A DNA stretch of 64,000 nt from Candidatus Saccharimonadia bacterium (GCA_035544015.1 DATKIP010000076.1:128299-192298); one strand, 5' to 3'; shown: positions 1 to 20,100, counted from the stretch's first letter. Numbers and translations are program-made. Notes: a model not told the origin generated them from the letters alone.

Positions 1-3000
1 ACTATCTCGATACCGCAGGCCACAGCTTCCCGACCCAAGACGACCCTCAAAAACTATTCCTTGCCCGAACCGACACCAGTTTGACCCAAAATTGGGGCAC
101 CGGCTCGCCGGTGCCGAACGGGCCCACCACTGGCTATATGGTCCGGTGGACGGGGTCGTATACGCCAACCCTTACCGGCGCATACAACTTCAAGGCTACT
201 GTCAGCGATGGCGTACGGGTGACCGTTGGCAGTACGGTCGTCCTCGACGCCTGGAGCGACCATGAGCCGGCCGCCACTGTGGGCCCCACAGTCCCCGTTA
301 ATCTAACAGGCGGCACTTCCGTGCCGATTACAATCGACTATTACCAAAATTCGGGAACGAGCCAAATCTCGCTGCTAGTCAACAAGCCCGACAGCACCGG
401 GGCGTATGTGCCCGTGGAAACGACGTCGCTCAGTCCCCAGGCTCAGGTGCTCCCGGAAGGCTGGGCTCTAGGCATTGATGCGGATGGCAATCTTAAATAC
501 GACTACGCCGTTATCGGGCTAAATAGTGTCACGCTGCGCGACTCTACCGGCCAAACCCACGAATATAAATTCATCAACAACGGATTTACGCCGCCGACCG
601 GTGAAATCGGCCATATGGTCCGCAACGGCGACAGCACCGTCACCTTCCAGGATGCTGACGGCCGCACCTACGTCTTTAACCCCAACGGCACGCTCGCATC
701 CACCACCACGCCAACGGATGATCTACATCCGACAGCCCTCAAATACACCTACGCAGGTTCGCCGGCTCGCCTTACCCAAATTACTGATGGCGTAACTTCA
801 AATCGCTGGGCCAAGATATATTATGCGGGCGATACCACGAACTGCCCGAGCCTTACAGCAGGATACACGGCCTATACTGACGCGAGAGTTGTCGGTATGA
901 TCTGCGCTATTGCCACCTCCGATGGTACCCAGTCCACGCCAGTAAACGTGCTTAATGGGAATGTAACGCGCCTCTCCTACCAAATAACCACGCATCCCGA
1001 CAGCACGACCGCTCCGAATCTAGCTCGTATCGAAAAGCCCGGAACCGACTATACCGACTACGGCTATGACTCACTTGGCCGCGTCCTAAGTGTTCGCGAC
1101 AGACTAGCTAGTGATGCCGTTTACGCAACCCCCCAAGTGCGCCTGCCGGACGGCACCGAATTGACAACGATACAGTACGACGCTCTAGGGCGTGTATCGA
1201 ACGCCACATTGCCTGCCGCCACAGCTGGCGCAGTGAGGATCGCTCATACCTACAACTATTACACCGGCCAAACCCAAATGCATCTTACGGGCGCCACGGA
1301 GCCAAACGGCTTTAGCCGTAAAATCCTCTATGACGCGACCCTTCGAACTACCAACGATTACGATGTAGCAAACCTCAACACTCAGAGCGAATGGCACGGC
1401 AGCAAGGATCTTGTGCTCTCAACAACCACGCCCGCCGGGCTTAAATCCACAACGCTCTACGATTACGCCGACCGGCCAATTGACCAATACGGACCAGCAC
1501 CCAGCGCCTGGTTCGGTTCCGACCGTAAACCGCTGCCAGGAAACGAACCCGTTTCGGGACAGCCATACGTGAATCTTATTGCACATAAGCAAACTGGATA
1601 TGACGAGTCGACAGTAGCGGGAAATAGTGCGCTCAAGAGCCTAGCTGCCACATATTACAATGTCGATACATACACTAATGGCACCGGGCAGCCCGCCAAA
1701 GCACTCTTTGGCACTCCCAAGCTGCACACGACAGGTATAGGCGGCGCAAACGGTGACATCAATAAGACGTGGGCAGGTACGCCGCCGTTTACACCCGACG
1801 CCGCACCGGGTGGCGGCACCTACGGCTGGGGTACCCGGCTTAGCGGATATGTACACTTCACGGCGGCCGGCAACTACACCTTCCGAATCCAATCAGACGA
1901 TGGGGTGCGGCTCTGGCTTGATGACACCCTAATCATTGACGACTGGACCGATGGCAGCTCGCGCTCGCATGGAATGGTGGCTGGATACACAGGCTTTAAC
2001 AATACAGCCGACTCCTACCACCGTATCCGGCTCGATTACTACAACAAGGCCGTGGGCGGAGTCCTTAATACCGATGCCGCACTAACGCTCTACATGACCC
2101 CGCCCGCGGGCGGCGAAACGAGCGCTCTCGGCACCCTGCTAAACCCCGGATATGGTCTAGCTACAACGAATACCGTCTATGACTCCAACGCCAACGTTGG
2201 CAATAGAACGACAACAACCGGCTACGGCCCGAACCCCGAGCTTGGTTTGGCCCAAACCTCCATTGTTGACCCCACGGGACTAGCCCTCACTACAAACTAC
2301 ACCTACGAAGCCCAAGGGGCGGCTGGCAGCTTCTTGCGGCAGCTTACCAAAACGTTGCCAGGAGGCAATACAACCAACTACGCCCACTACGCAGCCACTG
2401 ATCCGCCGCGCGATAACCCATGTACGGTACCGGTTGAGTCCTACAACCAGGCGGGACTGCAAAAATTAATCACGCAGCCTGACCCTGACGGTGCCGGCCC
2501 ACAAACGCCAGTTACCACAGAGACGATTTACGACAATACCGGACATGTAGTAGCTTCCCGCTACAATACCGAGGCATGGAAATGCACCACCTACGACGCG
2601 CGCGGACGCGTCACCCAAGTTGCCACTCCCAGCCAGCCGAACACTCCGCACGTCACTCGTTCCGCGCGCACCGTCACCAACAACTGGTCTGTCGGCGGCA
2701 ATCCTTTGGTGACAAGTGTCGCCGACTCCACTGGAACGATTACCACTACCGTTGACCTACTGGGCCGCATAACGAGCTACACTGACGCCAAGAGCAACAC
2801 AACGACATACGGCTATGACATATTCGGCCGCCTGACCTCGAAGACGACCCCTTACGGCACCGAAAATTACGTTTACGATAACAATAACCGCCTCACCGCG
2901 CAGAAACTGGGCACAACCACGCTCGCAACCCCAAGCTACGACGCCTTCGGTCGCTTGACCGGCGTGACCTATCCCACGGTCGTGTCCTCGTTCCCGGTCA

Positions 3001-4526
3001 GCACCATGACCATGGCCGTTTCTCGCGACAATCTTGGAAGGGTCAATAATTACGATTACACTGTCGTGGACCCCGCCACATTCACAGTTAAGCACGTTAT
3101 CGACAACATCGCATTCAGCCAGTCGAGCCAAGCCGTCTCGGGCACCGAAGCGGGGGCCGCAAAGACCTATACCTACGACAAAGCCGACCGGCTCACCACC
3201 GCCACGCTTGGCACCCACAGCTTTAGCTACAGCTTCGGGGCTCCGACAGCCTGCACGGGAACCTATAACGCCAACGCCGGCAAGAACGCCAATCGCACGA
3301 GCCAGGTACAAGATGGCGTCACCACCACCTATTGTTACGACAATGCCGACCGCTTAATTTCCAACACAGCAAATGGTGGCGCCAGTGTATCCGCCCACAC
3401 CTATGACGCACACGGGAACTTCGCGACACATGGGATCGATGGCTCTAGCGGCGGCGGCAATACAAAGATTGAATACGACTCGTCGGACCGCGCCGTCTAC
3501 ACATCCGATCCGGGCACAAACACTACCAATATCCGGGATGCACAGGATCGCCTGCTTACGATGGATGATTTCTGGCACAGTGATTACGGCTACTCTGATC
3601 CGGGCGATACACCTGATTTTACCCGCGGAACAGCCGGCTACGTACAAGAGGCATACATCCGGCTTATCGGCGGCGTGCTCTTAACTAATCGCTTGGGCGG
3701 AAGCGGGCAGCTCGACGGCCAAAATGTTTCGATGCCTAATCTGCATGGTGATGTTTTCGCTATAGCCAACGGCACCGGATTGCTCAGACAGGGGAAGTAC
3801 CCCAACTATGGCATTTTCCAATACACACCATTCGGAAGGGACCTCACGGGCGTTGATGGCTCCGAAGCCCCCGACAATGCTATGGGAACAAATAAATTCA
3901 CCACGGTGGGTGGGTTTGGTAAGTTAACCGAGACGGGCAACACATCACAGTTTGTCTTCATGGGCGCCCGCCTCTACGACGCTTCCCTCGGTCGCTTTGC
4001 TCAGGTCGATCCGATAGACGGCGGAACCGAAAACAATTACGTCTATCCGCCGGACCCAGTCAACAACTTCGACCTGAGCGGTACAAACGCATGGGATACA
4101 GCAGGCACAGTTGTAGGAGTTGGCGCGCTCGCGGTCTGCGTCGTAGCAAGCGCAGGAGCCTGCGGAGTCGCGCTGGGCGCCGCTACGGTAGCGGGTGCAG
4201 CGATCGCAGGCATGGCTACCTGGCAAGACACCCATAATTTCTGGCTTTCTGCAGGCATAGGGGTAGCATCCGGCGTTGCTGACCGGCTAAGTGGAGGCCT
4301 CTGGAAAACAAGCTCAGTCTTTAGGGCCGGCGTATTAAGGCTCGGGGCGAAATATCAAAGCAAGGTAGTAACAAACATGAGAGCCGCTAAACTCGGTGCG
4401 AGCTACATTGGCGGGTTGATCGTAAACAAAGCTGCAACCTCGACAATAAGAGGCGTCTATGACGACTGGTGGCTATGGAGCAGGAGTAGGCGGCCCGATT
4501 ACGTTGGGCTTACAATGATAGCATGA
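1..4526 (+). CDS. Rhs/YD-repeat polymorphic toxin, 5'-truncated at window edge; two PA14 domains, YD repeats, RHS core ending RxYDxxxGRFxxxDP...PVNNFDLSG, then ~147-aa Gly/Ala-rich hydrophobic C-terminal tip
   Basis: Frame is open back to nt 3, so the gene starts upstream of the window. PA14 signatures: GYMVRWTG...DDGVRV and GYVHFTAAGNYTFRIQSDDGVRLWLDD. YD-repeat motifs: YTYDKADRL, YCYDNADRL, YTYDAHGN. RHS core motif: RLYDASLGRFAQVDPIDGG. TGA stop at 4524-4526. Confidence 0.85.
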   Translation, partial: YLDTAGHSFPTQDDPQKLFLARTDTSLTQNWGTGSPVPNGPTTGYMVRWTGSYTPTLTGAYNFKATVSDGVRVTVGSTVVLDAWSDHEPAATVGPTVPVNLTGGTSVPITIDYYQNSGTSQISLLVNKPDSTGAYVPVETTSLSPQAQVLPEGWALGIDADGNLKYDYAVIGLNSVTLRDSTGQTHEYKFINNGFTPPTGEIGHMVRNGDSTVTFQDADGRTYVFNPNGTLASTTTPTDDLHPTALKYTYAGSPARLTQITDGVTSNRWAKIYYAGDTTNCPSLTAGYTAYTDARVVGMICAIATSDGTQSTPVNVLNGNVTRLSYQITTHPDSTTAPNLARIEKPGTDYTDYGYDSLGRVLSVRDRLASDAVYATPQVRLPDGTELTTIQYDALGRVSNATLPAATAGAVRIAHTYNYYTGQTQMHLTGATEPNGFSRKILYDATLRTTNDYDVANLNTQSEWHGSKDLVLSTTTPAGLKSTTLYDYADRPIDQYGPAPSAWFGSDRKPLPGNEPVSGQPYVNLIAHKQTGYDESTVAGNSALKSLAATYYNVDTYTNGTGQPAKALFGTPKLHTTGIGGANGDINKTWAGTPPFTPDAAPGGGTYGWGTRLSGYVHFTAAGNYTFRIQSDDGVRLWLDDTLIIDDWTDGSSRSHGMVAGYTGFNNTADSYHRIRLDYYNKAVGGVLNTDAALTLYMTPPAGGETSALGTLLNPGYGLATTNTVYDSNANVGNRTTTTGYGPNPELGLAQTSIVDPTGLALTTNYTYEAQGAAGSFLRQLTKTLPGGNTTNYAHYAATDPPRDNPCTVPVESYNQAGLQKLITQPDPDGAGPQTPVTTETIYDNTGHVVASRYNTEAWKCTTYDARGRVTQVATPSQPNTPHVTRSARTVTNNWSVGGNPLVTSVADSTGTITTTVDLLGRITSYTDAKSNTTTYGYDIFGRLTSKTTPYGTENYVYDNNNRLTAQKLGTTTLATPSYDAFGRLTGVTYPTVVSSFPVSTMTMAVSRDNLGRVNNYDYTVVDPATFTVKHVIDNIAFSQSSQAVSGTEAGAAKTYTYDKADRLTTATLGTHSFSYSFGAPTACTGTYNANAGKNANRTSQVQDGVTTTYCYDNADRLISNTANGGASVSAHTYDAHGNFATHGIDGSSGGGNTKIEYDSSDRAVYTSDPGTNTTNIRDAQDRLLTMDDFWHSDYGYSDPGDTPDFTRGTAGYVQEAYIRLIGGVLLTNRLGGSGQLDGQNVSMPNLHGDVFAIANGTGLLRQGKYPNYGIFQYTPFGRDLTGVDGSEAPDNAMGTNKFTTVGGFGKLTETGNTSQFVFMGARLYDASLGRFAQVDPIDGGTENNYVYPPDPVNNFDLSGTNAWDTAGTVVGVGALAVCVVASAGACGVALGAATVAGAAIAGMATWQDTHNFWLSAGIGVASGVADRLSGGLWKTSSVFRAGVLRLGAKYQSKVVTNMRAAKLGASYIGGLIVNKAATSTIRGVYDDWWLWSRSRRPDYVGLTMIA

Positions 4527-4792
4527 GCAAAAGAACGACATGCTACTGCGGAAAACCATACGCCCCTCTGGACGGCAGATTCTTCAAACTAGGAGGTCTT
4601 GTGATAATCGCTGCAATCGCACAATGGATAATCACCGGTCCGGACATAGCCCATTACAGGGCCTTCGGTGGATTCCTTGCGGTCCTCGTAATAATGCTGG
4701 GATTTCTCGTCGTGGCAACTGTGGTAAGGCTGCGTCAGGGGCATACCATTTTCTGTGCGATATGGGATGGAATTCGGTCAACGGTTCTGTAG
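4523..4792 (+). CDS. small 2-TM membrane protein, putative immunity protein for the Rhs C-terminal toxin
   Basis: ATGA overlap with the Rhs stop suggests translational coupling. Hydrophobic segments GGLVIIAAIAQWII and FLAVLVIMLGFLVVATVV. Immediately 3' of the toxin tip. Confidence 0.5.
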   Translation: MSKRTTCYCGKPYAPLDGRFFKLGGLVIIAAIAQWIITGPDIAHYRAFGGFLAVLVIMLGFLVVATVVRLRQGHTIFCAIWDGIRSTVL

Positions 4793-4820
4793 GGATTAAG
4801 AGTATTTAAGGAGAGTCTGA

Positions 4821-5090
4821 ATGCAAAACCCATTGGCGCATGTCCCCGAAGAGAAGGCACAGAAGGAGCTGGTTCGGTTCCTGATCATAGGCTGGATAGC
4901 TGCGGTCGTAGCATTTGCTGTGTTCGGCTGGGCGTTCATTGTCGCGCTCGGTTGCGCCAGCCGATGCTTAATATTGAGTTGGCATACCGGTAATAAGGAA
5001 CGCTCAAAAGCTTGGCTTTATAAGCTGGCCAGCATATTGCTGCTAATCGTATCCATCTACGAGCTCTACCTGGTGGTCCACCAGCCCTAG
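4821..5090 (+). CDS. small 3-TM membrane protein (second immunity candidate)
   Basis: Strong SD (taaggagag) 8 nt upstream of the ATG. Hydrophobic helices. AT-richer than the flanking sequence. Confidence 0.5.
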   Translation: MQNPLAHVPEEKAQKELVRFLIIGWIAAVVAFAVFGWAFIVALGCASRCLILSWHTGNKERSKAWLYKLASILLLIVSIYELYLVVHQP

Positions 5091-5091
5091 C

Positions 5092-5691
5092 ATGATAAAA
5101 GCTCCCGAATTCTACCAAATCTTCAAGCAGCACGACGAGCCACTAAAGCAGGCCGGCTTTGCCCGGCAAGGCCGTCACAAATATAGCCGCAACGGCAATA
5201 CGCTCCAAATAATCCTCGGCAAATGGAGTTGGACCGAAGACGAGGGCTGGGATTTCTTCATCCGCATCACAGACCTAGCCTACCCGGCCGAAGGACACCC
5301 TCATCAACCATCCACAGACGTGACTCCCGCAACGCTCGTCTCGCAAAAGCTAATCGACCCAAGAGCGATTGATGCCGCATACAAGGCATATGCCGCCGAA
5401 CACAAAAATCTGTACGGGAATATCCCAAACAGAGCGTTCGTCTTCTACGACGCCGAGCATCTCGGTAAAATTCTGGACCTGTTCCTATCCGCTATCGTTC
5501 AGGCAGCCCACAACTGGGATACCTTCCGCAACGAGGAACGAAAGAAGCCCCGCGCCCCCTTCCGTAAGCACACGGCCGAGGAGCTCCAAGCTATTGAAGA
5601 CCGGATCGAGCGCGACCTGCGGTCGGCTGGCCTCCAAATGGAGTTGGTCACTCCGCCTAAAAAGACCAAGTCGGCCAACCCACCGGGTTGA
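5092..5691 (+). CDS. hypothetical protein in toxin-immunity operon (possible immunity/orphan module)
   Basis: ATG is 1 nt after the preceding stop. 199-aa ORF with protein-like composition. No motif recognised with confidence. Confidence 0.45.
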   Translation: MIKAPEFYQIFKQHDEPLKQAGFARQGRHKYSRNGNTLQIILGKWSWTEDEGWDFFIRITDLAYPAEGHPHQPSTDVTPATLVSQKLIDPRAIDAAYKAYAAEHKNLYGNIPNRAFVFYDAEHLGKILDLFLSAIVQAAHNWDTFRNEERKKPRAPFRKHTAEELQAIEDRIERDLRSAGLQMELVTPPKKTKSANPPG

Positions 5692-5787
5692 TTCCAGATG
5701 CCGCTAATGGTAAAACCAAACCAGATAGTTGTGAGCGTGGAGACCTTTTTGAGTACTTGCAGGTACGAAGCGAGGTGCAAACACTAT

Positions 5788-5822
5788 CAATAGAAAACGG
5801 GCTGAAGCCCGTTTTCTATTGT
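5788..5822. terminator. perfect 15-bp stem hairpin (caatagaaaacgggc-tgaa-gcccgttttctattg) between convergent genes
   Basis: Perfect inverted repeat seen directly in sequence. No strong U-tract on either side, so function as a terminator is inferred. Confidence 0.4.
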
Positions 5823-5841
5823 GACGGCATCAGAGCCCTAT

Positions 5842-6279
5842 CTAGATCAAATGGTTGTGCCGAAAGCTGTAGCACCCTTTCGCCGTCACAATAATATGAT
5901 CCCGCACGGGCATGCCAAGCAAGAGACCCGCCGCTACGAGCTGCTGGGTGGCCGATATGTCTGGCTGGCTCGGGCTGCACTCGCCAGAAGGGTGATTATG
6001 GGCCACGATTATAGATGCCGCCCGGTCAATAATTGGACCGGCAAATACTTCACGGGGGTGCGTGAGGGCCACATCAAGTAGCCCTATCGTAACAACGCGC
6101 CGGGCAATAAGGCGCATCGCACTGTCCAACGAAAGGCATACGAAGTACTCCTGCTTCTTGTCTCGAAAATAATCCAAGTACGGAAGTACATCCTGGGCAG
6201 CGTGCATCGGCCTGGCACTTTGCTCATGAGGTATAGTTTGACAGAACGGACAGGGAATCCCATCGGCGGTTTTCAGCAT
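5842..6279 (-). CDS. radC: RadC-like JAB/MPN domain protein
   Basis: JAMM motif HNHPSG followed by PSxxD and DHIIV. HPREVF motif. Typical RadC C-terminal domain. Confidence 0.8.
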   Translation of the reverse strand: MLKTADGIPCPFCQTIPHEQSARPMHAAQDVLPYLDYFRDKKQEYFVCLSLDSAMRLIARRVVTIGLLDVALTHPREVFAGPIIDRAASIIVAHNHPSGECSPSQPDISATQQLVAAGLLLGMPVRDHIIVTAKGCYSFRHNHLI

Positions 6280-6286
6280 AGCATTT

Positions 6287-6376
6287 TATAAACAAACTGT
6301 TTATACGGCATTGTTTTGAATGTATATGCAATCCCAAATATAAACAAGTCGTTTATATAACGATCTGTTTATATTT
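6287..6376. promoter_or_regulatory. operator-like palindromes TATAAACA-N3-TGTTTATA and TATAAACA-N4-GTTTATA plus a third half-site TGTTTATA, in the divergent radC/xre promoter region
   Basis: Read directly: tataaacaaactgtttata at 6287-6305, tataaacaagtcgtttata at 6340-6358, and tgtttata at 6366-6373. Confidence 0.45.
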
Positions 6377-6390
6377 CCTACGCTACAGGC

Positions 6391-6618
6391 ATGAGTAACA
6401 CACAAGAATCCAAGCAACTTATGGCCTTTGGCCGCAGACTAGCTGATGTACGGAAAAGCCGCGGGCTAACCCAGCAGCAGTTAGCAGAAAAGCTAAGTAT
6501 AAGCCTCGTATCCATCGGCTACATCGAAACAGGCAAACGCTGGCCGCGACTGGTAACCCTGCACCGGATTAGCGCTGCATTAGGCGTACGCCTCGAAGAA
6601 CTCTTTAAGGGGCTGTAG
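6391..6618 (+). CDS. XRE-family helix-turn-helix transcriptional regulator
   Basis: HTH signature RKSRGLTQQQLAEKLSISLVSIGYIETGKRWP. 75 aa. Confidence 0.8.
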   Translation: MSNTQESKQLMAFGRRLADVRKSRGLTQQQLAEKLSISLVSIGYIETGKRWPRLVTLHRISAALGVRLEELFKGL

Positions 6619-6818
6619 CCGACAAGCAACGTGCCAAGCGGCCATTTGGGAACACTTCCCTGCCGGCGCTCCATAGGGGATAATAGCAACAATACATTAG
6701 GAATCGTCATGAGTATCATGCCCTCTCACATCCAGTGACTGCCCGGCCGTAATGGCTAATCCTTCAGCATATTTCTGCTGTAAATAATTAGCAGCCATGA
6801 GCTGCTGAAGGATATAAC

Positions 6819-7724
6819 ATGTCAACACGATATTTCAATCACCGAGTCCAAAAAGCCCGACAATTCCTTGCTCAACGCATGTCCGGCGACACGCCAGAAC
6901 ATCCCGGGCTAACAACCTCATTTTGGAATTTACTCGAAAAAATTAAGCAGGATAGGGAAGCAGCGCTTGCCTTAGCCTACTCGCTCCTGGATACTTCGGC
7001 ACCATCCGAGCGCTTCTTTGCCGTTGTTTTGCTGGGTAAAATCTTCAACCCCACCGAGCGGCATCAGCGCGCCGAAGCCCGCCATATGATCGCAGTCTTG
7101 GCGGCCAGGGCCGCCCGCGAACGACACCCAGCTATCCTCACGCAAATCGGTTACGCCCTCGGCAAGCCGTATCTTCGTGAAGCCGTCCGGCCGCTCGTCA
7201 AACTGTCCCGCCATCCACACGAAGACGTTCGGTATGCCGCCACAGGTTCAATCGTGTCGGGTATTCATGAGCGGGCGCCAAAATATGCCCTAGATCGGCT
7301 ATTTGAGCTCATGCGCGATCCCGACCCAGACGTGCGCAATTGGGCCACTTTTGCCGTCGGGACACAGTTGGACATCGAAGCTAACAATAGTGACGCCATC
7401 CGCCAAGCGTTGCTCGACCGAACTCGCGACCGTCATTTTGAAACCCGCGCCGAAGCCTTTCGCGGCTTGGCTAGGCGAGGCGATCGCCGCGGAGTGCTAC
7501 CCTTAAAGCACTGGCTGGAACGCCAAGACCAGCAGGGCAAAACGATTTGGACTTGGGAGATCGAAGCCGCCGGCATATATGGCGATCCGATCTTTTATCC
7601 CGCGCTAACGAGCGTTGCCGAGTGGTGGAGGACAGACCAGCCAGTCATGAGCTGGGCACTGGCTCGCTGCCATCCCGATATGGAGATTCGGGACAGAACA
7701 TTGCTCGAAGACCAACTGTACTAA
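6819..7724 (+). CDS. HEAT/PBS-lyase-like repeat protein
   Basis: Repeated DP(D/N)xxVRxxAxxALG-type units (DPDPDVRNWATFAVG, HEDVRYAATGSI). SD aagga 7 nt upstream. Confidence 0.65.
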   Translation: MSTRYFNHRVQKARQFLAQRMSGDTPEHPGLTTSFWNLLEKIKQDREAALALAYSLLDTSAPSERFFAVVLLGKIFNPTERHQRAEARHMIAVLAARAARERHPAILTQIGYALGKPYLREAVRPLVKLSRHPHEDVRYAATGSIVSGIHERAPKYALDRLFELMRDPDPDVRNWATFAVGTQLDIEANNSDAIRQALLDRTRDRHFETRAEAFRGLARRGDRRGVLPLKHWLERQDQQGKTIWTWEIEAAGIYGDPIFYPALTSVAEWWRTDQPVMSWALARCHPDMEIRDRTLLEDQLY

Positions 7725-7840
7725 GCTTGCATTAATGTACTACTAATACTACAATAAATACCAAGAACATGAGTACGTTAACAGTTCGGCTAAGCACAAA
7801 ACACAAGCCCAAATTGCAGTACTCATAGTACAATAAAGTC

Positions 7841-8050
7841 ATGACACCAGTGCGACCAAGATTCCAAATCAACGCGGCTCCTGAAATACTCAACGAGGCC
7901 AAGGCCATTGCCTATAGTCGCGGGCTAAGTCTGACGGAATTTGTACTGCAAGCGCTCGCTAAAGACGGGAATGACAAGCTTAAAAAGCTCGTCGAAAAGG
8001 ACCTGGCTAACCGCACCCGGCCGGGCAATCCCTCTAAACCCAAATTCTGA
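7841..8050 (+). CDS. ribbon-helix-helix DNA-binding protein, DinJ/RelB-antitoxin-like (no cognate toxin seen)
   Basis: RFQINAAPEILNEAKAIAYSRGLSLTEFVLQAL matches the beta-strand plus two-helix RHH pattern of DinJ/RelB. Confidence 0.45.
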   Translation: MTPVRPRFQINAAPEILNEAKAIAYSRGLSLTEFVLQALAKDGNDKLKKLVEKDLANRTRPGNPSKPKF

Positions 8051-8138
8051 AAAAGCCATAACTTAGCCGAATTGCTACATTTCGCGAATGTTCGCTGAAA
8101 CTTGTTTTGATGGCAAATTACGGTAAGCGAGGGTAGAA

Positions 8139-8312
8139 ATGGGCAGAGTTAAAGGCGCAAAGAACAAAGAGAAGTCCCCTGAAATCTTCAGCATGACGAC
8201 AGACGATCGCATCACTCTCCTAGCCAACATTATCGTCGACGCCATCGCTGATAAGGAAACTCGAGAAGCCATTGACGCGGCCATGGCTAAAGAAGCCCAA
8301 GAGAAGCAATAG
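8139..8312 (+). CDS. 57-aa hypothetical protein immediately upstream of the recombinase (possible RDF/accessory)
   Basis: ATG preceded by gcgagggtagaa. Ends 11 nt before the recombinase start. Below the 60-aa cutoff of the ORF track. Confidence 0.3.
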   Translation: MGRVKGAKNKEKSPEIFSMTTDDRITLLANIIVDAIADKETREAIDAAMAKEAQEKQ

Positions 8313-8323
8313 GGGAGGGGAAT

Positions 8324-10033
8324 ATGCCGTCATTAGCCAACAAGAATGCCGTAGCCGCAATCCGAGTATCCACCGAGAAACAAGGCCGAGACGGCGATTC
8401 GCCCGAAGCTCAAAAAGAACAAATCGAACGCTATGCCGCCACCCAAGGCATCACAATCAAACAATACTTCGTATTTCTGGAATCTGCTTCCAAAGACCAG
8501 CAGCCAGTCCAGCCGGCCATCGACTACTGTAAGAATCCCAGGAACGACATCCAGCTCTTTATCATCAAATCCATCGATCGCTTCACGCGCGGTGGCTCAC
8601 ATGCCTATGGCGAGCTAACCGCCCAGCTCGACCATTGCCGGGTCAAACTCGTGGACATCTACGGTGTCATTAGCGGCCAAGAAATTAACACCCTCGATCA
8701 CCTCGGCTTCGAATACAAATGGAGCAAATACTCACCCAGCAAAAAATCGGAAATCCTCGAAGCCGAACGCGCCAAAGATGAACTCCGCGACATCATGAGC
8801 CGCATCATCGGCGCCGAAATCCGCTACACCCAAATGGGCTACTGGATGCGCCGTGCACCGTACGGCCTCATCAGCGAAAAAGCCGAAACCAAGCATGGCA
8901 AACGATGTGTGCTCAAGGCTCATCCCACCGAATCCAAGTACATCCTCCAGATGTTTGAGCTAAGCGCTAAGGGCACCCTCCATGACGAAGAAATCGTAGA
9001 CAAGCTCAACGAACTTGGCTTCAGAACCAGAGTGAAGTATATTCGCGACCAAAATGATAGGACTAAGGTCATTGCCAAAAGCGGGGGCAACCCGCTAACG
9101 GTGAAGGCAATGCACAAGTTACTTCGCAACCCCATCTACGCCGGCATCAACGCCGAGAAGTGGACAGGGGACAAGCCCATTAAGTGCGCCTTCCAAGGCC
9201 TCATCTCCGTCGATCTCTTCAATCGCGCCAACAAAGGCAAGAAGGTAATCGTTGAGAGCGCCAATGGCGAAATAGCCATTAGTACCAAACGACCACCCGA
9301 GCATCTGATTAACAAGGGTAAGCGTTATCCTGACTTTGCTTTCCGTTATCTACTTTGCCCCGATTGCCGTAAGCCACTCGTCGGCAGTGCTTCCCGTGGC
9401 AAATCCGGGAAGTACTATCCCGCCTACCATTGCGCACATCGTGGGCACTACTACCGTATACCTAAGCAGGAGCTGGAGGATCGAGTCGCCGAGTTTATCG
9501 GCAACCTTACCGTCTCTAGCGATCACCTCGATGCCGTCATGAATGCCGTCTCTGCTGAGTGGCATCTGCGCAACCAAAGCCAGCTCCAAGAGCTGGAGGG
9601 CATCGAGGAGCGCATTGCAGAGCTAAGAAAAGATGCTGTCGCCACCATGGACAAGATTCGCGTATTGAACTCACCAACCGCCCTTAAATTTATGGAGGAA
9701 GACCTCGTGAGAATAGAACAGCAAATCGAAGCCCTTACCGACGAGAAGGCCAAGAAAGAAGCCGAGAAACCGCACGAAATTAGCAAAGTCTTGGGAAGGG
9801 TCCGATATTTCGTGGAACACCTCGATAAATTGATCCTCCAACAGATAGACCCGATCAAAAAAGCCCAGCTTTTCGGCGTCATTTTCGACCAAATCCCAAC
9901 TGTCGATGAAATAAAATGTGGAACACCAAAAACACCCCTGTTTCCAGGAGTGAATGGCATCTTTGCGCTCGCAAATATGAATAAAGACTCTATGGTAGTC
10001 CCACGGGGAATCGAACCCCGGTTGCCAGGATGA
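8324..10033 (+). CDS. large serine recombinase (resolvase-type catalytic domain + recombinase domain + zinc ribbon + coiled coil)
   Basis: Catalytic motif AAIRVSTEKQ. Zinc ribbon CPDCRKP...YHCAHRGH. Long C-terminal coiled coil. SD gggagggga upstream. The last ~13 codons are the reverse complement of tRNA-Glu. Confidence 0.85.
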   Translation: MPSLANKNAVAAIRVSTEKQGRDGDSPEAQKEQIERYAATQGITIKQYFVFLESASKDQQPVQPAIDYCKNPRNDIQLFIIKSIDRFTRGGSHAYGELTAQLDHCRVKLVDIYGVISGQEINTLDHLGFEYKWSKYSPSKKSEILEAERAKDELRDIMSRIIGAEIRYTQMGYWMRRAPYGLISEKAETKHGKRCVLKAHPTESKYILQMFELSAKGTLHDEEIVDKLNELGFRTRVKYIRDQNDRTKVIAKSGGNPLTVKAMHKLLRNPIYAGINAEKWTGDKPIKCAFQGLISVDLFNRANKGKKVIVESANGEIAISTKRPPEHLINKGKRYPDFAFRYLLCPDCRKPLVGSASRGKSGKYYPAYHCAHRGHYYRIPKQELEDRVAEFIGNLTVSSDHLDAVMNAVSAEWHLRNQSQLQELEGIEERIAELRKDAVATMDKIRVLNSPTALKFMEEDLVRIEQQIEALTDEKAKKEAEKPHEISKVLGRVRYFVEHLDKLILQQIDPIKKAQLFGVIFDQIPTVDEIKCGTPKTPLFPGVNGIFALANMNKDSMVVPRGIEPRLPG

Positions 10034-10068
10034 AAACCTGGTGTCCTAACCGTTAGACGATGGGACCA
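9994..10068 (-). tRNA. tRNA-Glu (anticodon UUC)
   Basis: Reverse complement folds as a cloverleaf. Acceptor stem GGTCCCA/TGGGACT. D-arm GTCT-AACGGTTA-GGAC. Anticodon stem CCAGG/CCTGG with loop TTTTCAT (UUC). T-arm CGGGG-TTCGATT-CCCCG. Encoded CCA at the 3' end. Confidence 0.8.
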
Positions 10069-13997: not shown

Positions 13998-14020
13998 CAT
14001 CATACCGAACATATTCCGAA
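13998..14020 (+). promoter_or_regulatory. conserved motif CATCATACCGAACATATTCCGAA (copy 2 of 3)
   Basis: Matches 22 of 23 positions of copy 1. Lies in the divergent intergenic region between 13958 (minus) and the GT2 gene. Confidence 0.35.
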
Positions 14021-14166
14021 GATTCAAGCCCAGCGGTAAACTACCGGATTCCTATCATACCGCCCACACTGCATCCCGCATCAAGTCTTGAAATTCTCCC
14101 TCCCAACCCATCTCCCTACATTCCCGACCACCCCGCCCTGTAATTTTGCACAAAAGACCTCGCAGT

Positions 14167-15033
14167 ATGACTCTGGTAACATACGTACCCATGAGCACCC
14201 CCCTTGTATCTGTTGTTATCCCAACAAAAAACAGCATCCGTTTCCTCAAGGCCTGTCTGGCGTCCGTGAAAGAGCAGTCCTATAAAAACGTCGAGACGAT
14301 CGTCGTTGATGGTCAATCCACAGACGGAACCATTGAGCTCTGCAATAAAATGGGCGCTAAAGTTTTACAATATGATCCCAAAGTCAAAAAAGGATTTTTT
14401 GACGCCCCCTTCCGCAGAAACTATGGAGTCGAAAACGCTGGCGGCGAGTTAGTCTATTATGTAGACGCGGATATGGAATTAACAAAGAATGTTATCCGTG
14501 ACGCCGTAGAGCTTTGCACTGAATCCGGCAGTGATGCTGTAATAATTCCAGAAGACTCATTCGGCATTGGGGTATGGGCCCAAGCCAAAAACCTAGAAAG
14601 AAGATGCTACTGGGGCGACGACTCGGTCGAGGCGCCTCGTTTTCTAAAGCGCAGCGTATGGGTGCAACTGGGAGGCCTCGATACGAGCCTGGGAGGGGGA
14701 GGAGACGACTGGGATTTATACCAGAAGTTGAGAGATCACGGCTACACTGTCTCCAGAATCAAATCGCTAGTCATGCACAATGAGGGGCACTTGAGCCTCC
14801 GAAAACTTATGCGAAAGAGATTTATGTACGGGCGGGATTCAGCTCGGTACATTTCCAAACGGCCGGCCGCCGGTGTAAAAAGCTACTTTCCCATACGAAT
14901 GGCATATTTGAGAAATTGGAAGCTGTTCGCCCGTCGTCCCGTCGACGCCGCAGCCTTTATGGTTATGAGACTGGCCGAATATTCAGCAGGGTTTGTCGGG
15001 ATACTTTACTCGGTACTAAAGGGGAATGCATGA
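14167..15033 (+). CDS. GT2 family glycosyltransferase (start uncertain: TTG 14146, ATG 14167 or ATG 14191)
   Basis: VSVVIPTKN start and DGQSTDGT motif. YVDADMEL DxD motif. Confidence 0.75.
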   Translation: MTLVTYVPMSTPLVSVVIPTKNSIRFLKACLASVKEQSYKNVETIVVDGQSTDGTIELCNKMGAKVLQYDPKVKKGFFDAPFRRNYGVENAGGELVYYVDADMELTKNVIRDAVELCTESGSDAVIIPEDSFGIGVWAQAKNLERRCYWGDDSVEAPRFLKRSVWVQLGGLDTSLGGGGDDWDLYQKLRDHGYTVSRIKSLVMHNEGHLSLRKLMRKRFMYGRDSARYISKRPAAGVKSYFPIRMAYLRNWKLFARRPVDAAAFMVMRLAEYSAGFVGILYSVLKGNA

Positions 15034-15995
15034 AAGCTACGCAATTTTGGAAGAATAAAACTGTTTTAGTTGCCGGCGGCTTAGGATTCGTGGGTGCCCA
15101 TGTCATAGAGGAGCTCCTGCGGCAAGACGCAAAAGTAATCTGTCTCTACCGCGGGGGGGATACGAAATTTTTCCACAAACGCGGGCTAGACGTATCGAAT
15201 CTTACTTTCCAAAAGATAGATTTGCTTGATTCGCACGGGGTTAATTTAGTCACCCAAAATGCTGACGTTTTAATTAATTGTGCCGCCCTCGATGGAAACG
15301 CAGAATTTAAGCGAAAAAATGCCGCCAAGATACTCGATTCCAATTTAAGAATCGTCTCCAATCTTTTAAACGCCGCGGTCGAAAACTCCATCAGTGACGT
15401 GGTCCTCTTAAGTTCGGCGGAGGTGTACCCGGGACAAGTTAGTAATCCTATTCGCGAAAGTGATGACTATAGAAAAAATTGGGACTATACCGATAATGGC
15501 TATGTCTTATCCAAGAGGTTTTCAGAGATCATGGGAGAGGCCTTCCGATCTCAATACGGCATAAAAATCTATCATCCCCGTCCCGCAAATATTTATGGCC
15601 CCCGAGATCATTTTGGCTCTGCGATGAATCGCGTGATCCCCAGCATGATTAAAAAAATAGCCGACGATCAAGACGTCGAAATTTGGGGTGACGGCAGTCA
15701 AGTCAGGAGCTTCGTATACGTCACTGATGCCGCAAAAGGCATCTTGGGAATGGTCGAAAATGAATTTGACGATTATTTAAATATCGGGTCCCCCGAAGCG
15801 ATTTCGGTACTTGAGTTGGCAAACCGGATAGGTGATCTTCAGGGAAAAAAAGTCAAAGCAAACCTGGACACGAGCAAGCCTGGCGGGTCGGCGCGGCGAG
15901 TCCTAGACGTAGCAAATCATCTGAGGATGACCGGCGGAGAATATACGGATCTCAATAGCGGCATCGATCAAACCATTCAATGGTATCTTGCCTAG
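15030..15995 (+). CDS. NAD-dependent epimerase/dehydratase (extended SDR)
   Basis: Rossmann motif TVLVAGGLGFVGAHV. Catalytic YVLSK motif. SD aagggg upstream. ATGA overlap with the GT2 stop. Confidence 0.8.
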   Translation: MKATQFWKNKTVLVAGGLGFVGAHVIEELLRQDAKVICLYRGGDTKFFHKRGLDVSNLTFQKIDLLDSHGVNLVTQNADVLINCAALDGNAEFKRKNAAKILDSNLRIVSNLLNAAVENSISDVVLLSSAEVYPGQVSNPIRESDDYRKNWDYTDNGYVLSKRFSEIMGEAFRSQYGIKIYHPRPANIYGPRDHFGSAMNRVIPSMIKKIADDQDVEIWGDGSQVRSFVYVTDAAKGILGMVENEFDDYLNIGSPEAISVLELANRIGDLQGKKVKANLDTSKPGGSARRVLDVANHLRMTGGEYTDLNSGIDQTIQWYLA

Positions 15996-15996
15996 T

Positions 15997-17178
15997 ATGC
16001 GGGTAATTTTTTTCTCGTTTGGAATTTTAGAATACGGCGGAGGGTTAGAGAATTACCTCATTGCCACCGCGCCGGATTTAATACGTGGTCGGTATGTTGA
16101 CGAAGCCTCGATCATTACGGCTACACCTCGGCTAAATGAGGCCCTTCAACATCTGCTAACGTTGTATTACTTTAGGAAGCATTCAACCTCGACGATATAT
16201 CGAGAGAGCGCTAAAGACATCAAAATAAGGTTAGGAGCAGTCAAATATTTGCAGGCAGATTCCCTTCGGGATTTGCGGGAAAGACTGCAAAAGTACGACG
16301 TCGTATATACAAAAAATGAGATCATCGAACTGGCTATATTAAAACTCATTGGCTACAAGAACCTACCCCCGGTGGTGGTCGGGGCACACACCCCCGTCTA
16401 CTTTACGAACGCCCCCTCTGTGTCCGCAAAGCTTCATAATTTGATCTACGGCGGGTTTATTTATCGGTACCTGCTAAAAGGATCTGCCTACATCAAATGT
16501 AATAATCAAGAAGATATGGCCTTTGTTCAAAAAAAATTAAAATACAAAAACGCGGTGGTGATACATCATGGATTCGATATTACGGAGGGCTCGGTGCGAC
16601 GCAATCAAACTGATTCTCTCAATATTCTATTCGCCGGACGTCTTAGCGAGGCCAAAGGGGTCGATACGCTCGAAACTATAATTCAAACGCTCAGCAAGCA
16701 TGAACGATTCGAAGCATACAGATTCCGGATAGCAGGGAGCGGCGACGAAAATCTAGAATCCATAGCCGAATCGCTCGCAAGAAACTATCCCAACGTAGAA
16801 TATCTCGGACATGTCCCCGTCGCAGATATGCGGACATTATACGAATGGGCCGATATCTCCCTCATCCCGTCTCGATATGAGACGCTAAACAAGATAGCAG
16901 TTGAAACGGGCTTGGCATCCAAGATAGCTATAGCCTCGGATATATCGGGCCCTAGGGAAGTGATCGAAAATGAGAAAACGGGTTTTCTCGTCAGTCCAGA
17001 ACCAAAAGAATTCGCCGAGAAGATAATTGCATTGGACACTTTACGAAAGACGAATCGTGCAAAATTCAACTCGATTGGTCAAGCGGCAAGAGAAAAAATA
17101 AGCCGAGAATTTAACAAAAATCGCTCGTATATAGAATTGTCTGAGTTGCTTGAGAAGGCACGAGCTAATAGGCGATGA
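15997..17178 (+). CDS. glycosyltransferase family 4
   Basis: C-terminal GT-B motifs EAKGVDTL, RIAGSGDE, ETLNKIAVETGL...GFLV. Starts 2 nt after the epimerase stop. Confidence 0.75.
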   Translation: MRVIFFSFGILEYGGGLENYLIATAPDLIRGRYVDEASIITATPRLNEALQHLLTLYYFRKHSTSTIYRESAKDIKIRLGAVKYLQADSLRDLRERLQKYDVVYTKNEIIELAILKLIGYKNLPPVVVGAHTPVYFTNAPSVSAKLHNLIYGGFIYRYLLKGSAYIKCNNQEDMAFVQKKLKYKNAVVIHHGFDITEGSVRRNQTDSLNILFAGRLSEAKGVDTLETIIQTLSKHERFEAYRFRIAGSGDENLESIAESLARNYPNVEYLGHVPVADMRTLYEWADISLIPSRYETLNKIAVETGLASKIAIASDISGPREVIENEKTGFLVSPEPKEFAEKIIALDTLRKTNRAKFNSIGQAAREKISREFNKNRSYIELSELLEKARANRR

Positions 17179-20100
17179 ATAAGAAGAATTTATACCTGGT
17201 CGGCTTCATCATACTTCTGAACATCCTGGTTTATCGAGTGTGGTTTCTTGGGTTCGGGATAATGACTCATGGGGATTGGAGCTATGTCTCTCGCGTAAGC
17301 GCCGATACGCTGAGAATCCATTATTTTTCACTTTGGCTGTCAGACTATTCGTTTGGGCGCATTCTCGTCGACGTTGGGCAGGCCCCCACCTATGCATTTT
17401 ATGGGTTCTTGTCAGCTGCCCTGCAGATCGATTTTGCCCTGGCCGAAAGGCTCGTGCACCTCTGGCCAGCAGTGCTCCTCACTCCGCTCGGGGCCTTTTT
17501 TCTGGTATGGAAGATTTTTAAAAACCGAATCGCAGCCATACTGGGCGCCATCATATATTCCTGTAATACCTATTTTTTAATCCTACTGACCGGGCATCTA
17601 ACGCTCGCGGGCGCATATGCGCTTGCCCCGTGGGTGCTGCTCGCATATTTAGAGTTCTTAGAGAAGGAGAGCCTTCGTTATGGCATCTGGGCTGGCCTCC
17701 TGCTCTCGGCGTCGTCGGCCTATGAACCCCGAGCCGCATACATAATTGCCTGGATCCTCGTCTTCGCCGCCGCCGGCCAGGGCGTCGCAAAAATCATTGA
17801 TCATAAAAAAATTAACGAGATCATAAGCTATACGCTGCGCTCAATTATTCCGTTTGCCATATTCGGGCTGCTCAATTTCTTTTGGATTTTTGCTTTCACC
17901 AAAATCAACGGTGCAATTGGCGCGGATATTCTGTCGCGAGGGTTATTCGGAAATGCGTTTTACGACATTAATGAAGCCCTAACCCTGTTTCACCCCTTCT
18001 GGAACGGTGGACGACCAATACCATTTATTATTAACCACATCCCATTGTATTTCTGGCTGCTTCCCGTCGCCGCAACTCTCGGGATATTCTTGAATAAATC
18101 CAGAAGAACGATAATTTTCTTTGCCACACTTGGCATTCTGGGAATATTTCTAACAAAACAGGTAGACACTCCCTTTCCGCAGGCGTATCAATGGCTCTAC
18201 GCGCACTTTCCCGGCTTCGGTGCGTATAGAGAGGCGAGCAAATTCTACCTACTAATCGCGTTATCGTATACGGTTCTCATCCCCGGCGCATATATTGCGT
18301 TGAAGAAAATCGGCCATAAGTACCTCTCCCTAGGCTTTGCGGCAGCTCTCGCGAGCATTATGGTAGTAAACTTAGCTCCCATCATAAGCGGTACGATCCA
18401 GACCACGTTCGCAAGTCGTACAATCCCAGAGTCTTATACGGCTCTCAACAAATTGTTGGACGAATCGTCTTTTTCCAGGACGCTGTGGGCCCCCAAGGAC
18501 TCGCGATGGGCGCTAGACTCCGACATGCACCCGAAAGTAGGGGCAATCGATATAGCGCAATCCTCGTGGGTCGATTTCATCAAACGCACCGTGGATGGTA
18601 GCTACCTGACCACCGAGGAGCAGGCCATGGAGGTTTTCCAGAATCCGTTTGCACCCGAGCTTCTAGCGGACGGAGTCATTAAATATGTCGTAGTCCCGTT
18701 AAGGGATACTAAAAATGACGATGATTTCTTCATTAATTACGGCGATATCCGAAGCAACTACACCGATTTGCTCGATAAAATGCCGTTCTTAAAACGGGTT
18801 AATACTGGCATCAACGACATCGCACTCTACCAAAACACGAATGTTAAGCCCTATGTCTCAACCTTCAGCAATCTATATTCAATCCCGGGCATGCCAGCAC
18901 TCCAGGGATCGCTCAACTTTGCGAAACAGGCCCTAGGAGAGAAAGATTTCAACTTTGTGAGTGGCGAAGAGAAGACTTATGCTCGAAAGATAACGGACTT
19001 ATTTGGCACTTTCGAAGACATGCAACCAACTCGGGACCGCGAGCTTGCTAGCAAGGAGGACCTGAGGGGGTCAACGATTTATCGGCCAGCCAGATTTAGC
19101 GAGTACGAATATCGCGTGGCGGGGAATGAACTACAGATTTTGTCGCGAGATCTCAGAAAAAACCTAGGTGCAACCAGGGGAGTAGCCAACGCGGCTAGTT
19201 TTTCAATTATAAAACGGATAAATGTTGCACGAGAGCCCGACATATATCTGGATATTGACGGAAAAATTACAAAACTTAACGCGAGCGACAACCAGGAGCA
19301 TTATCTTGGGTCTAACGTTGAAAAAATTGGAGTCTACTCTGCCACGACAGGCAATAACGTCATCAACGGATCGTTCGAAAGCGGTTTATGGCAGGACAAA
19401 GTACAAGATTGCAATAATTACGACGGTAGTCCCTCGATATCCGTGAGACAAAGTTCGGTGGCTTCCGATGGAAAATACTCTCTAAATATGACGGCACAGA
19501 AACACATGGCCTGTACCGCCTCAGCGCCCTTACCAATTCGAGCAGATTTTTATCTCACAGCCATGGATTACAAAATACACAATGGTACCTACGCTGCGTA
19601 CCAGATCAGCAACTCGGAAACAAAGGAAGTCTTGGGAAAATATAACCTGCGAGCGCCCGATGATGCGTGGCGCACGTATGCCACGATTCAGGCTCGTCCC
19701 TCTGGGGCTACCAATCTCGGCGTTACTCTCATGGCAAGACCATCTGAGCAGCAGAGTAAGCTCGCGGAAACAAATTACGACAATGTAAAAATCGTTGGCC
19801 TAAAAAAGCTCGATTCTCTGGATTTTGGACAGAACCAATTCGAGCCCTTCCAGAGTGGCCCGACGGCGTATCGAGATCAGGCCTATACGTACGAGAACAT
19901 CGTTCCGAATGGTTCGTTCGAAAATGGGCTTTGGGAAAAAAATGTTGGCGATTGCGGCGCGTATGACGACAAGCCCAAGATAGGGATGAATATAAGTACA
20001 AAAGCGAGCGATGGTAGGCGATCCCTCGAGCTCCATGCTTCGCGGCACATTGCCTGCACCAGCGCCAATAATATCCCCATTGAGCCAAATGGGACTTACC

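Follow-up and report, generated by a model that had tools for sequence, protein, structure and literature searches.

What does the C-terminal tip of an Rhs protein do when it is strongly hydrophobic and is followed by two small membrane-protein genes? The question is raised by a stretch of 64,000 nucleotides from Candidatus Saccharimonadia (GCA_035544015.1, DATKIP010000076.1:128299-192298), referred to from this point on as the window. Its source is a 320 kb contig of a metagenome-assembled genome (MAG) (ENA ERZ27251635 k141_318506), on which the genes concerned bear the NCBI locus tags VMT30_0439x-04400. An earlier, sequence-only reading had described the end of this Rhs protein as a glycine-zipper toxin tip followed by membrane-type immunity candidates. 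The locus is best read as a polymorphic-toxin cassette from a monoderm Saccharimonadia bacterium, a member of the candidate phyla radiation (CPR). On balance, and by a modest degree, we lean toward a tip that inserts into membranes and depolarizes cells, carried by a Sec-exported PA14-Rhs protein and neutralized within the membrane by the products of the two downstream genes, o4523 and/or o4821.

A hydrophobic tip behind the Rhs core

The open reading frame (ORF) at 81..4526 (+) is the 3' part of a gene encoding a 2355-aa Rhs protein, which is complete at 2368..9435 of locus L001, the window extended 4.9 kb leftward. The 3' two-thirds of this Rhs/YD-repeat gene occupy 1..4082 (+) of the window, with the rest lying upstream. 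The Rhs-associated core domain TIGR03696 (3942..4082 (+); ORF residues 1288-1334, profile positions 27-75 of 76) scores 35.6 bits against a cutoff of 32.5, and its match ends at ORF residue 1334, the Gly of PVNNFDLSG. The core closes with the sequence ...GARLYDASLGRFAQVDPIDGGTENNYVYPPDPVNNFDLSG, and this end is presumed to be the site of autoproteolysis that frees the tip. The boundary motif has DL where the PxxxxDPxGL-type motif has DP; the form P....[DN]..G is common to relatives. Both the boundary and the tip length of about 147 aa were correctly placed in the sequence-only reading, except that the in-frame start is 4083, not 4085. The tip itself (4083..4526 (+)) comprises 147 aa plus the stop codon and has a net charge of +7.

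The tip is 18% Ala, 14% Gly and 12% Val. Gly, Ala and Val make up 75% of its richest 40-aa window; their mean share is 26% (standard deviation 8%) for the whole protein, and the maximum in the Rhs body is 45%. Across the 2355 residues, no stretch exceeds a KD19 hydropathy of 1.6 apart from those in the N-terminal signal region and at tip residues 3-45. A hydrophobic hairpin rich in Gly, Ala, Val and Cys (4104..4217 (+); tip residues 8-45, GTVVGVGALAVCVVASAGACGVALGAATVAGAAIAGMA) contains a CX7C motif that flanks a predicted turn. The Gly/Ala-rich, hydrophobic character first claimed for the tip is thus borne out by both measures. The glycine zipper did not hold up as a statistically distinct feature. 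Two canonical motifs of the (G/A/S)xxxGxxxG or GxxxGxxx(G/S/T) type are present, A24-G28-G32 and S56-G60-G64 (the latter within SAGIGVASG, 4248..4274 (+)), but composition-preserving shuffles reach this count 44% of the time (P = 0.44); a small-xxx-small chain of six is reached in 21% of shuffles. The robust signal of the tip is composition and hydrophobicity, not zipper periodicity. Since shuffles so often match the zipper count, we take a Gly/Ala/Val-rich hydrophobic hairpin as the observation and use 'zipper' as a description only.

Beyond the hairpin, the C-terminal half of the tip has a grand average of hydropathy (GRAVY) of 0.00 and is predicted to be helical. A Trp-rich basic motif, DDWWLWSRSRRPDY (4461..4502 (+); tip residues 127-140), which is invariant between the window and the homologous fragment L035 described below, is a candidate membrane-interface segment. 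An AlphaFold2 single-sequence model of the tip is all-helical, with the hairpin break at residues 22-23, at low confidence (pLDDT, the predicted score in the local distance difference test, of 48). Summed apparent insertion free energies (dGapp), calculated with scale values that we take to be those of Hessa et al. 2005, come to about +0.8 kcal/mol for the best window of the tip, a marginal value, and to -3.2 and -1.9 for the o4523 and o4821 proteins. A marginal value is as expected for a toxin that needs to stay soluble or encapsulated.

The tip and two membrane-protein genes form a conserved module

The first immunity candidate, o4523 (4523..4792 (+)), begins with an ATG that overlaps the Rhs stop codon as ATGA and encodes 89 aa. 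The second, o4821 (4821..5090 (+)), likewise encodes 89 aa and follows a Shine-Dalgarno sequence, AAGGAG (4808..4813 (+)), with a 7-nt spacer to its ATG. These starts and lengths agree with those first proposed, including the strong ribosome-binding site of o4821. Both products had also been called multi-transmembrane (TM) proteins; their membrane character is upheld, with about two predicted TM helices each in place of several. Those of o4523 lie at about residues 23-40 and 49-68, the hydrophobic stretches of o4821 at about residues 20-47 and 68-86, and the tails of both proteins are at most 22 residues long. The idea that the two are paralogues was rejected on comparison.

A 990-bp Logan contig, L035, holds in the same order the end of a tip, an o4523 homologue and an o4821 homologue. 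The last 74 residues of its tip are 78% identical to those of the window, with a ratio of nonsynonymous to synonymous substitution rates (dN/dS) of 0.075. The o4523 homologue, 52% identical and ungapped over 89 aa, keeps the ATGA overlap; the proportions of nonsynonymous (pN) and synonymous (pS) differences are 0.32 and 0.68, and dN/dS is 0.23. The o4821 homologue is 71% identical in this alignment and 74.7% by tblastn (pN 0.15, pS 0.78). The persistence of reading frames and synteny despite near-saturated synonymous sites speaks strongly for three linked, protein-coding regions. The tip and the two TM genes are a conserved module under purifying selection.

In the public annotation, a 51-aa antisense ORF at 4589-4744 (-) is called in place of o4523. 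Codon-usage log-likelihoods are about 0 bits for o4523 and +8 to +12 bits for the antisense ORF. Since o4523 is conserved in L035 and stop codons interrupt the antisense frame there, o4523 is a real gene that public gene callers have missed. The residues of o4523 kept in L035 cluster in its short cytoplasmic tails, as CxC (residues 7 and 9) and GHxIxC (residues 73-78), which correspond to 4541-4549 and 4739-4756 in the window. A GHSVRC motif also occurs in a truncated TM ORF upstream of the o4821 homologue in a further locus, L036. In a two-TM protein, the CxC ... GHxIxC set may serve in metal binding or redox chemistry. BLASTP finds no similarity between o4523 and the first TM genes of L036 and of a Woesebacteria MAG locus, L006; L036 shares only the short GHx[IV]xC.

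The o4821 family has five members: the window protein, P0005 (in L006), P0006 (in L035), P0007 (in L036) and that of L037. A profile of two o4821-like proteins found P0006 and P0007 on short metagenomic contigs, and the fifth member (35% identity) came from a JGI metagenome scan. As seen in an alignment of four sequences (A2), the proteins are about 89-91 aa long, with an N-terminal ExAxKEL, two hydrophobic stretches and the invariant residues F35-G36, R48, H55, K63, S78 and E81. No member reaches threshold against Pfam, where the sole match is to BrkB, well below cut-off. The L037 gene lies on a Patescibacteria-like contig with no Rhs tip upstream of it. To judge from this arrangement it is an orphan copy, as is known for immunity genes.

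The Woesebacteria locus adds a more divergent example. Its 142-aa tip has the same hairpin, including the CX7C around the predicted turn; over 35 aa it is 49% identical to that of the window, and the Smith-Waterman score (z = 6.6) was reached by none of 2000 shuffles. A 95-aa TM gene comes next, and after it an 89-aa o4821 homologue (26% identity over 81 aa, ungapped, E 2e-11). A conserved hairpin accompanies a conserved o4821, and a variable C-terminal half accompanies a variable first TM gene. This covariation, seen in 2-3 loci, hints at a two-part tip.

Searches for relatives of the tip

The sequence-only reading held the tip to be unlike nuclease or deaminase tips and its family to be possibly undescribed. 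Searches bear out both statements: no enzymatic toxin or other family was matched in the profile libraries, and four places besides the window hold a relative of any part of the module in the collections searched. In particular, the tip matched no family of Pfam-A, NCBIfam or PADLOC at E <= 1 and gave only noise against PHROGs; no glycine-zipper, bacteriocin, colicin-pore or Ntox/Tox profile was matched at or near its curated threshold, and no meaningful match was found among PDB sequences. A word-indexed search of 5.8 billion protein clusters returned no match. An exhaustive phmmer search over 1.84 billion representatives returned only the tip's own protein and one spurious match, P0003, a cadherin-repeat subtilase in which five repeated stretches were hit and which was rejected as a relative. 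Scans of viral contigs with the tip and with the o4821 family yielded nothing. A profile of the hairpin tips (alignment A3) did match the fusion-peptide region of paramyxovirus F0 in PDB (E ~0.0015); this was set aside, as homology, in favor of a compositional resemblance between Gly/Ala-rich membrane-inserting segments. By these searches, the tip family is new and falls in no described family.

Immunity type tracks tip hydrophobicity across the Rhs clade

To place the tip among its relatives, species representatives of GTDB were scanned with the last 400 core residues plus the tip, which gave 33 loci. Core identity is about 37-46% in Patescibacteria and about 28-40% in Actinomycetota (Nocardia, Acidimicrobiales and Microbacteriaceae), with a few relatives from Acidobacteriota MAGs. 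In most of the 33 loci the tblastn match stops near query residue 400, at P....D..G, and the tips beyond it are unrelated. Hypervariable tips on a conserved core are the hallmark of polymorphic toxins. The genes directly downstream in these loci encode a sub-threshold Imm8-like protein and other small proteins.

This pattern bears on a reading without any toxin, in which the protein is a surface adhesin fixed in the membrane of the producer by its hydrophobic segment, and the small TM genes encode unrelated membrane proteins. PA14 domains are typical of adhesins, which would suit such a role. The segment, however, follows the cleavage motif of the Rhs core, the usual position of a toxin; about 100 residues extend beyond it, so that it is no C-terminal tail anchor or sorting signal; and an N-terminal signal or anchor is already present. 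The hypervariability of tips behind a shared core, their sub-threshold Imm8-like, HNH and PT-HINT partners, and the synteny of the tip and both TM genes across saturated synonymous divergence also speak against an adhesin, and we regard this reading as very improbable.

Twelve of the related tips have a hydrophobic segment. In 7 of the 12, the window and the Woesebacteria locus included, the remainder of the tip is non-polar (GRAVY >= -0.21), and TM ORFs come next in all 7, tentatively so in L034. The other five have polar domains (GRAVY -0.38 to -1.21), and all 5 are followed by soluble ORFs. Fisher's exact test, calculated by hand, gives 1/792 for the association of immunity type with tip remainder, with a GRAVY threshold picked after seeing the data and crude TM calls. 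At that level, the type of immunity gene agrees with tip hydrophobicity across the Rhs clade.

The five tips with polar domains also suggest another division of labor. The hairpin would be a module for entry or translocation that inserts into the target membrane to bring in or place the C-terminal ~80 aa (66-147), and these would be an effector of unrecognized activity with a cytoplasmic or membrane-associated target. In L002, L004, L007, L016 and L033, a hydrophobic Gly/Ala-rich helix right after the cleavage motif is followed by a polar domain and a soluble gene, and L033 has a GGNHR ParB-like motif. L012 has a weaker Gly/Ala segment, then PT-HINT plus HNH. The hairpin is the sole part common to the tips of the window and L006, which suggests modularity, and the C-terminal half is under the strong purifying selection noted above (dN/dS 0.075). 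There are precedents in Tde1, whose glycine zipper is needed for translocation (PMC10240207), and in CdiA-CT toxins with separate entry domains (PMC11630599). The partners point the other way. Cytoplasmic toxins normally have soluble immunity proteins, and the conserved partners here are two 89-aa, almost wholly TM proteins; the only soluble neighbor, o5092, is an ORFan that is not kept in L035. The C-terminal half, moreover, has no catalytic match, is predicted to be helical and has a GRAVY of 0.00, against -0.38 to -1.21 in the tips with soluble immunity. We therefore hold an entry-module role to be possible and rather unlikely. The two roles are compatible, and the tip could have two parts, as CDI (contact-dependent inhibition) ionophores do (PMC11630599).

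Proposed mode of action

The membrane as the site of action is suggested mainly by the partners, which are two-TM proteins with no soluble toxin-binding domain. Having almost no soluble part, the o4523 and o4821 proteins would have to recognize the toxin inside or at the membrane. Both activity and immunity are what we infer from these features, and the functional statements below are to be taken in that sense.

The full-length protein has a domain order that would suit delivery from the cell surface: a signal-like N-terminus, three PA14 domains, RHS/YD repeats, the Rhs core and the tip. Its start codon, an ATG at L001 2368, lies 2541 nt upstream of the window with an AGGAGG Shine-Dalgarno sequence ahead of it. 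One public model of the gene, P0002 (2250 aa), begins at Val106 and thus omits the signal-like N-terminus; the ATG 105 codons 5' of that start, with its perfect AGGAGG, gives the 2355-aa form. At the N-terminus, a basic stretch is followed by a 20-residue hydrophobic segment (about residues 44-66) and then AQA, which on inspection looks like a Sec-type signal or signal anchor. The second of the three PA14 domains lies at approximately 90..482 (+) (PF07691 E 1.3e-31, in 2 stretches; the RsgI3 PA14 domain, 6qe7_A, is matched in PDB over query residues 4-134) and the third at 1812..2120 (+) (ORF residues 578-680). Profile searches find RHS repeats in 7 stretches (PF05593 E 1.1e-17; TIGR01643 E 1e-11), the best-scoring at 2754..2861 (+), and PDB sequence matches include Rhs shells, that of Tse5 (8cp6_B) among them. 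The N-terminal 880 aa contain no PAAR domain, the matches there being PA14 and, below threshold, DUF7948. Profile searches of the Rhs protein match no LXG domain; the architecture is that of an Rhs protein.

In the favored reading of a membrane-active tip, the 2355-aa protein would be Sec-exported by means of the signal or anchor at its N-terminus, and its three PA14 domains would bind glycans on the surface of the target cell. The Rhs cocoon would hold the 147-aa tip and so shield the producer's membrane from it until delivery, and the aspartyl-protease motif of the core would cut the tip free after ...DPVNNFDLSG. At a neighboring cell, the hairpin (residues 8-45) would insert into the cytoplasmic membrane from outside, perhaps aided by the downstream helices and the Trp-rich basic C-terminus. 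Self-association by small-residue packing could then form an ion channel or pore that dissipates the membrane potential. The o4523 and/or o4821 proteins would protect the producer and its kin, possibly as a pair like ExiC and ExiD (see below).

Several observations weigh against this picture. The family is small: five places hold a relative of any part of the module, two of them contigs of <1.1 kb, and the 2.8 kb contig of L037 ends inside its o4821 homologue. The C-terminal halves of the tips of L006 and the window are unrelated (z < 0), which leaves the hairpin as the sole shared part, and their first TM genes are unrelated as well. L007 has a similar hairpin, but its downstream genes are soluble and include no o4821 homologue. 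In Nocardia relatives, a hydrophobic Gly/Ala-rich stretch precedes soluble toxin domains; that of L012, which stays below KD19 1.6, precedes PT-HINT+HNH. To these are added the zipper count that shuffles readily reach, a tip model of too poor confidence (pLDDT 48) for fold comparison, TM predictions that are simple hydropathy calculations, and the post hoc threshold behind the clade-wide association.

Possible targets and the distribution of the core

The identity of the organism raises the question of whether the tip is aimed at a host, making the membrane of an actinobacterial host leaky for nutrients while the TM proteins only prevent self-damage. Cultured Saccharimonadia are obligate epibionts of Actinomycetota (PMC13622651), most core relatives from outside Patescibacteria are in Actinomycetota, with a few in Acidobacteriota MAGs, and the PA14 domains could bind host wall glycans. 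The immunity genes and the orphan o4821 homologue of L037 instead point to attack among Patescibacteria; a host-directed role seems improbable. A fuller version would have a PA14-docked host weapon, an Rhs scaffold exchanged with the host phylum and a two-part shield, with o4821 set against the hairpin and o4523 against the C-terminal half. We consider that combination a doubtful one, with little probability attached.

The actinobacterial core relatives comprise Nocardia, Acidimicrobiales, Labedella, Subtercola and Homoserinibacter, a distribution that may reflect exchange between host and epibiont. One further relative, L004 (DATLCF010000001.1, 562 kb), is labelled Nevskiaceae (Gammaproteobacteria), with an Rhs core 43% identical to that of the window. 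Its tip and that of the Saccharimonadia locus L002 are alike, with a PGPIGMA motif in both, and the contig may be mis-binned or mislabelled.

Comparison with characterized toxin systems

The nearest functional parallels appear to be Tse5/Tsi5 and EsxX/ExiCD, and the module belongs to neither family, since it lacks similarity to Tse5 PDB chains, PAAR or other type VI secretion system (T6SS) features, and LXG. Tse5 (PA2684, RhsP1) of Pseudomonas aeruginosa carries a 149-aa C-terminal toxin (CT) that is disordered inside the Rhs shell and is released by an aspartyl-protease motif; Tse5-CT inserts spontaneously into bilayers, forms cation-preferring pores and depolarizes cells, and the adjacent gene encodes Tsi5, a small two-TM immunity protein of the inner membrane (PMC9637101, PMC10684867). 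The window shares with it a tip of ~150 aa that lacks enzymatic motifs and is predicted to form TM or amphipathic helices, and two-TM neighbors, as judged here from hydropathy and a low-confidence model. The length of 147 aa is close to that of Tse5-CT, which fits the Rhs cavity (PMC10684867). No Tse5 chain is found among PDB matches at E <= 10 for either the tip or a tip profile, in a library that holds the shell chain and in which the presence of the CT entity is unconfirmed. Tse5 is also a PAAR-like, VgrG-dependent T6SS effector of a diderm, whereas the window protein carries three PA14 domains behind a Sec-type signal, lacks PAAR, belongs to a monoderm CPR bacterium and is followed by two TM genes rather than one.

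EsxX/ExiCD of S. aureus and TelE of S. gallolyticus are depolarizing C-terminal toxin systems with (G/A/S)xxxGxxxG motifs. Against outside attack by the glycine-zipper toxin EsxX, a pair of membrane proteins is needed, and the genes of the pair also occur as orphans (PMC12744356). The two adjacent TM genes of the window and the orphan o4821 homologue of L037 are reminiscent of this arrangement. The differences are that EsxX and TelE are LXG proteins delivered by a secretion system of type VII (T7SS), in contrast to Rhs and Sec here, with no homology between them; that six TM helices are present in each of ExiC and ExiD (DUF5079/DUF5080) and about two in each small protein of the window; and that no soluble immunity pair like ExiAB is conserved at the window module.

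WapA, a contact-dependent Rhs/YD toxin of Gram-positive bacteria, offers a parallel in architecture. Characterized WapA tips are known as nucleases (tRNases) with soluble immunity proteins, whereas the window has a hydrophobic tip with membrane-protein partners. WapA of Bacillus subtilis and Streptococcus suis resembles the window protein in its Sec signal, wall- or carbohydrate-binding modules, YD/RHS repeats, polymorphic tip and adjacent immunity gene (PMC12704120). Within the host group itself, the soil Saccharibacteria 'T. rhizospherense' encodes a 2487-aa RHS/YD and PA14 polymorphic toxin beside an immunity gene (PMC6031116). It is likened to the window protein by its description, in overall architecture; the type of its tip is not described there.

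The CDI ionophores, CdiA-CT with CdiI in E. coli EC93 and relatives, are polymorphic depolarizing toxins with polymorphic immunity proteins and with entry and ionophore domains (PMC11630599). The window and L006 tips recall them in that a hairpin is conserved while the C-terminal half varies. They differ in two-partner secretion, a VENN boundary and predicted five-helix bundles, no sequence similarity is found, and the order of domains would be reversed here if the hairpin is the pore element.

Genomic setting

The third gene of the series, o5092 (5092..5691 (+)), encodes a 199-aa soluble protein that had been offered as an orphan immunity gene. That proposal finds no support: the protein is an ORFan with no relatives and no family in the profile libraries, the gene after the L035 module is unrelated to it, and no fold is recognizable. 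Its AlphaFold2 single-sequence model (pLDDT 46.6) is too poor for fold comparison, and a Foldseek search of PDB with that model gave nothing below E 0.07. No segment of the protein is hydrophobic (maximum KD19 1.03). The gene seems to be transcribed together with the module, since the sole strong terminator-like hairpin is a 15-bp stem-loop at 5788..5821, between the convergent o5092 and radC, which is likely the end of the operon. o5092 is not part of the conserved module.

Downstream of the cassette lie genes for a RadC-like JAB protein (5842-6279 (-), E 1.7e-35), an HTH_3 regulator (6391-6618 (+)) and a 301-aa HEAT-repeat protein (6819-7724 (+)). In the Nocardia locus L012, the gene at 8206-8829, directly 3' of the Rhs PT-HINT+HNH tip, gives a weak HEAT-repeat match that stays below threshold (18 bits; the cut-off is 27.7). 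As this weak HEAT-like gene adjoins an Rhs tip, the HEAT protein of the window might be an orphan immunity gene.

G+C content is 51-57% in the first ~10 kb of the window (1-10067) and about 58-67% in most of the remainder. The low stretch closes with the gene for a 569-aa large serine recombinase (8324-10033 (+); PHROG integrase match, E 1e-37), the 3' end of which overlaps a tRNA-Glu gene on the opposite strand (9993-10067 (-)). Because the low G+C ends at a recombinase that overlaps tRNA-Glu, the Rhs cassette may sit on an integrated mobile element; the 2.3 kb available upstream of the Rhs gene contain no att-type repeat of the tRNA-Glu. A second block of markedly low G+C (47-48%) at 14000-20000 lies within a glycosyltransferase and polysaccharide-synthesis region, contains a 1220-aa ORF (17175-20837) with a partial MmpA-like match, and may be a second acquired segment.

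The window holds no orphan Rhs fragments and no further copies of the module. In L006, the two TM genes are followed by an orphan Rhs C-terminal fragment (8181-8543; ...MGARVYLPTQGRFLQTDPVEGG...) and then by a further small gene (8548-9003), an arrangement that is a classic array of spare toxin cassettes.

Conclusions

On sequence comparison, what is new here is the tip family, the five-member o4821 family and the gene o4523. The tip, o4523 and o4821 make up a compact three-gene set, and the case of o4523 illustrates how small membrane immunity genes escape gene callers. The relation between tip hydrophobicity and immunity type is a simple rule that could be used for sorting uncharacterized tips. 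Patescibacteria are abundant, mostly uncultured epibionts, and little is known of how they attack hosts or rivals. The locus points to the use, by CPR bacteria, of membrane-active toxins packaged in Rhs proteins and countered by small immunity proteins within the membrane. If this is true, the strategy of Tse5, a pore former held in an Rhs cocoon, would extend from T6SS-bearing diderms to monoderm CPR bacteria.

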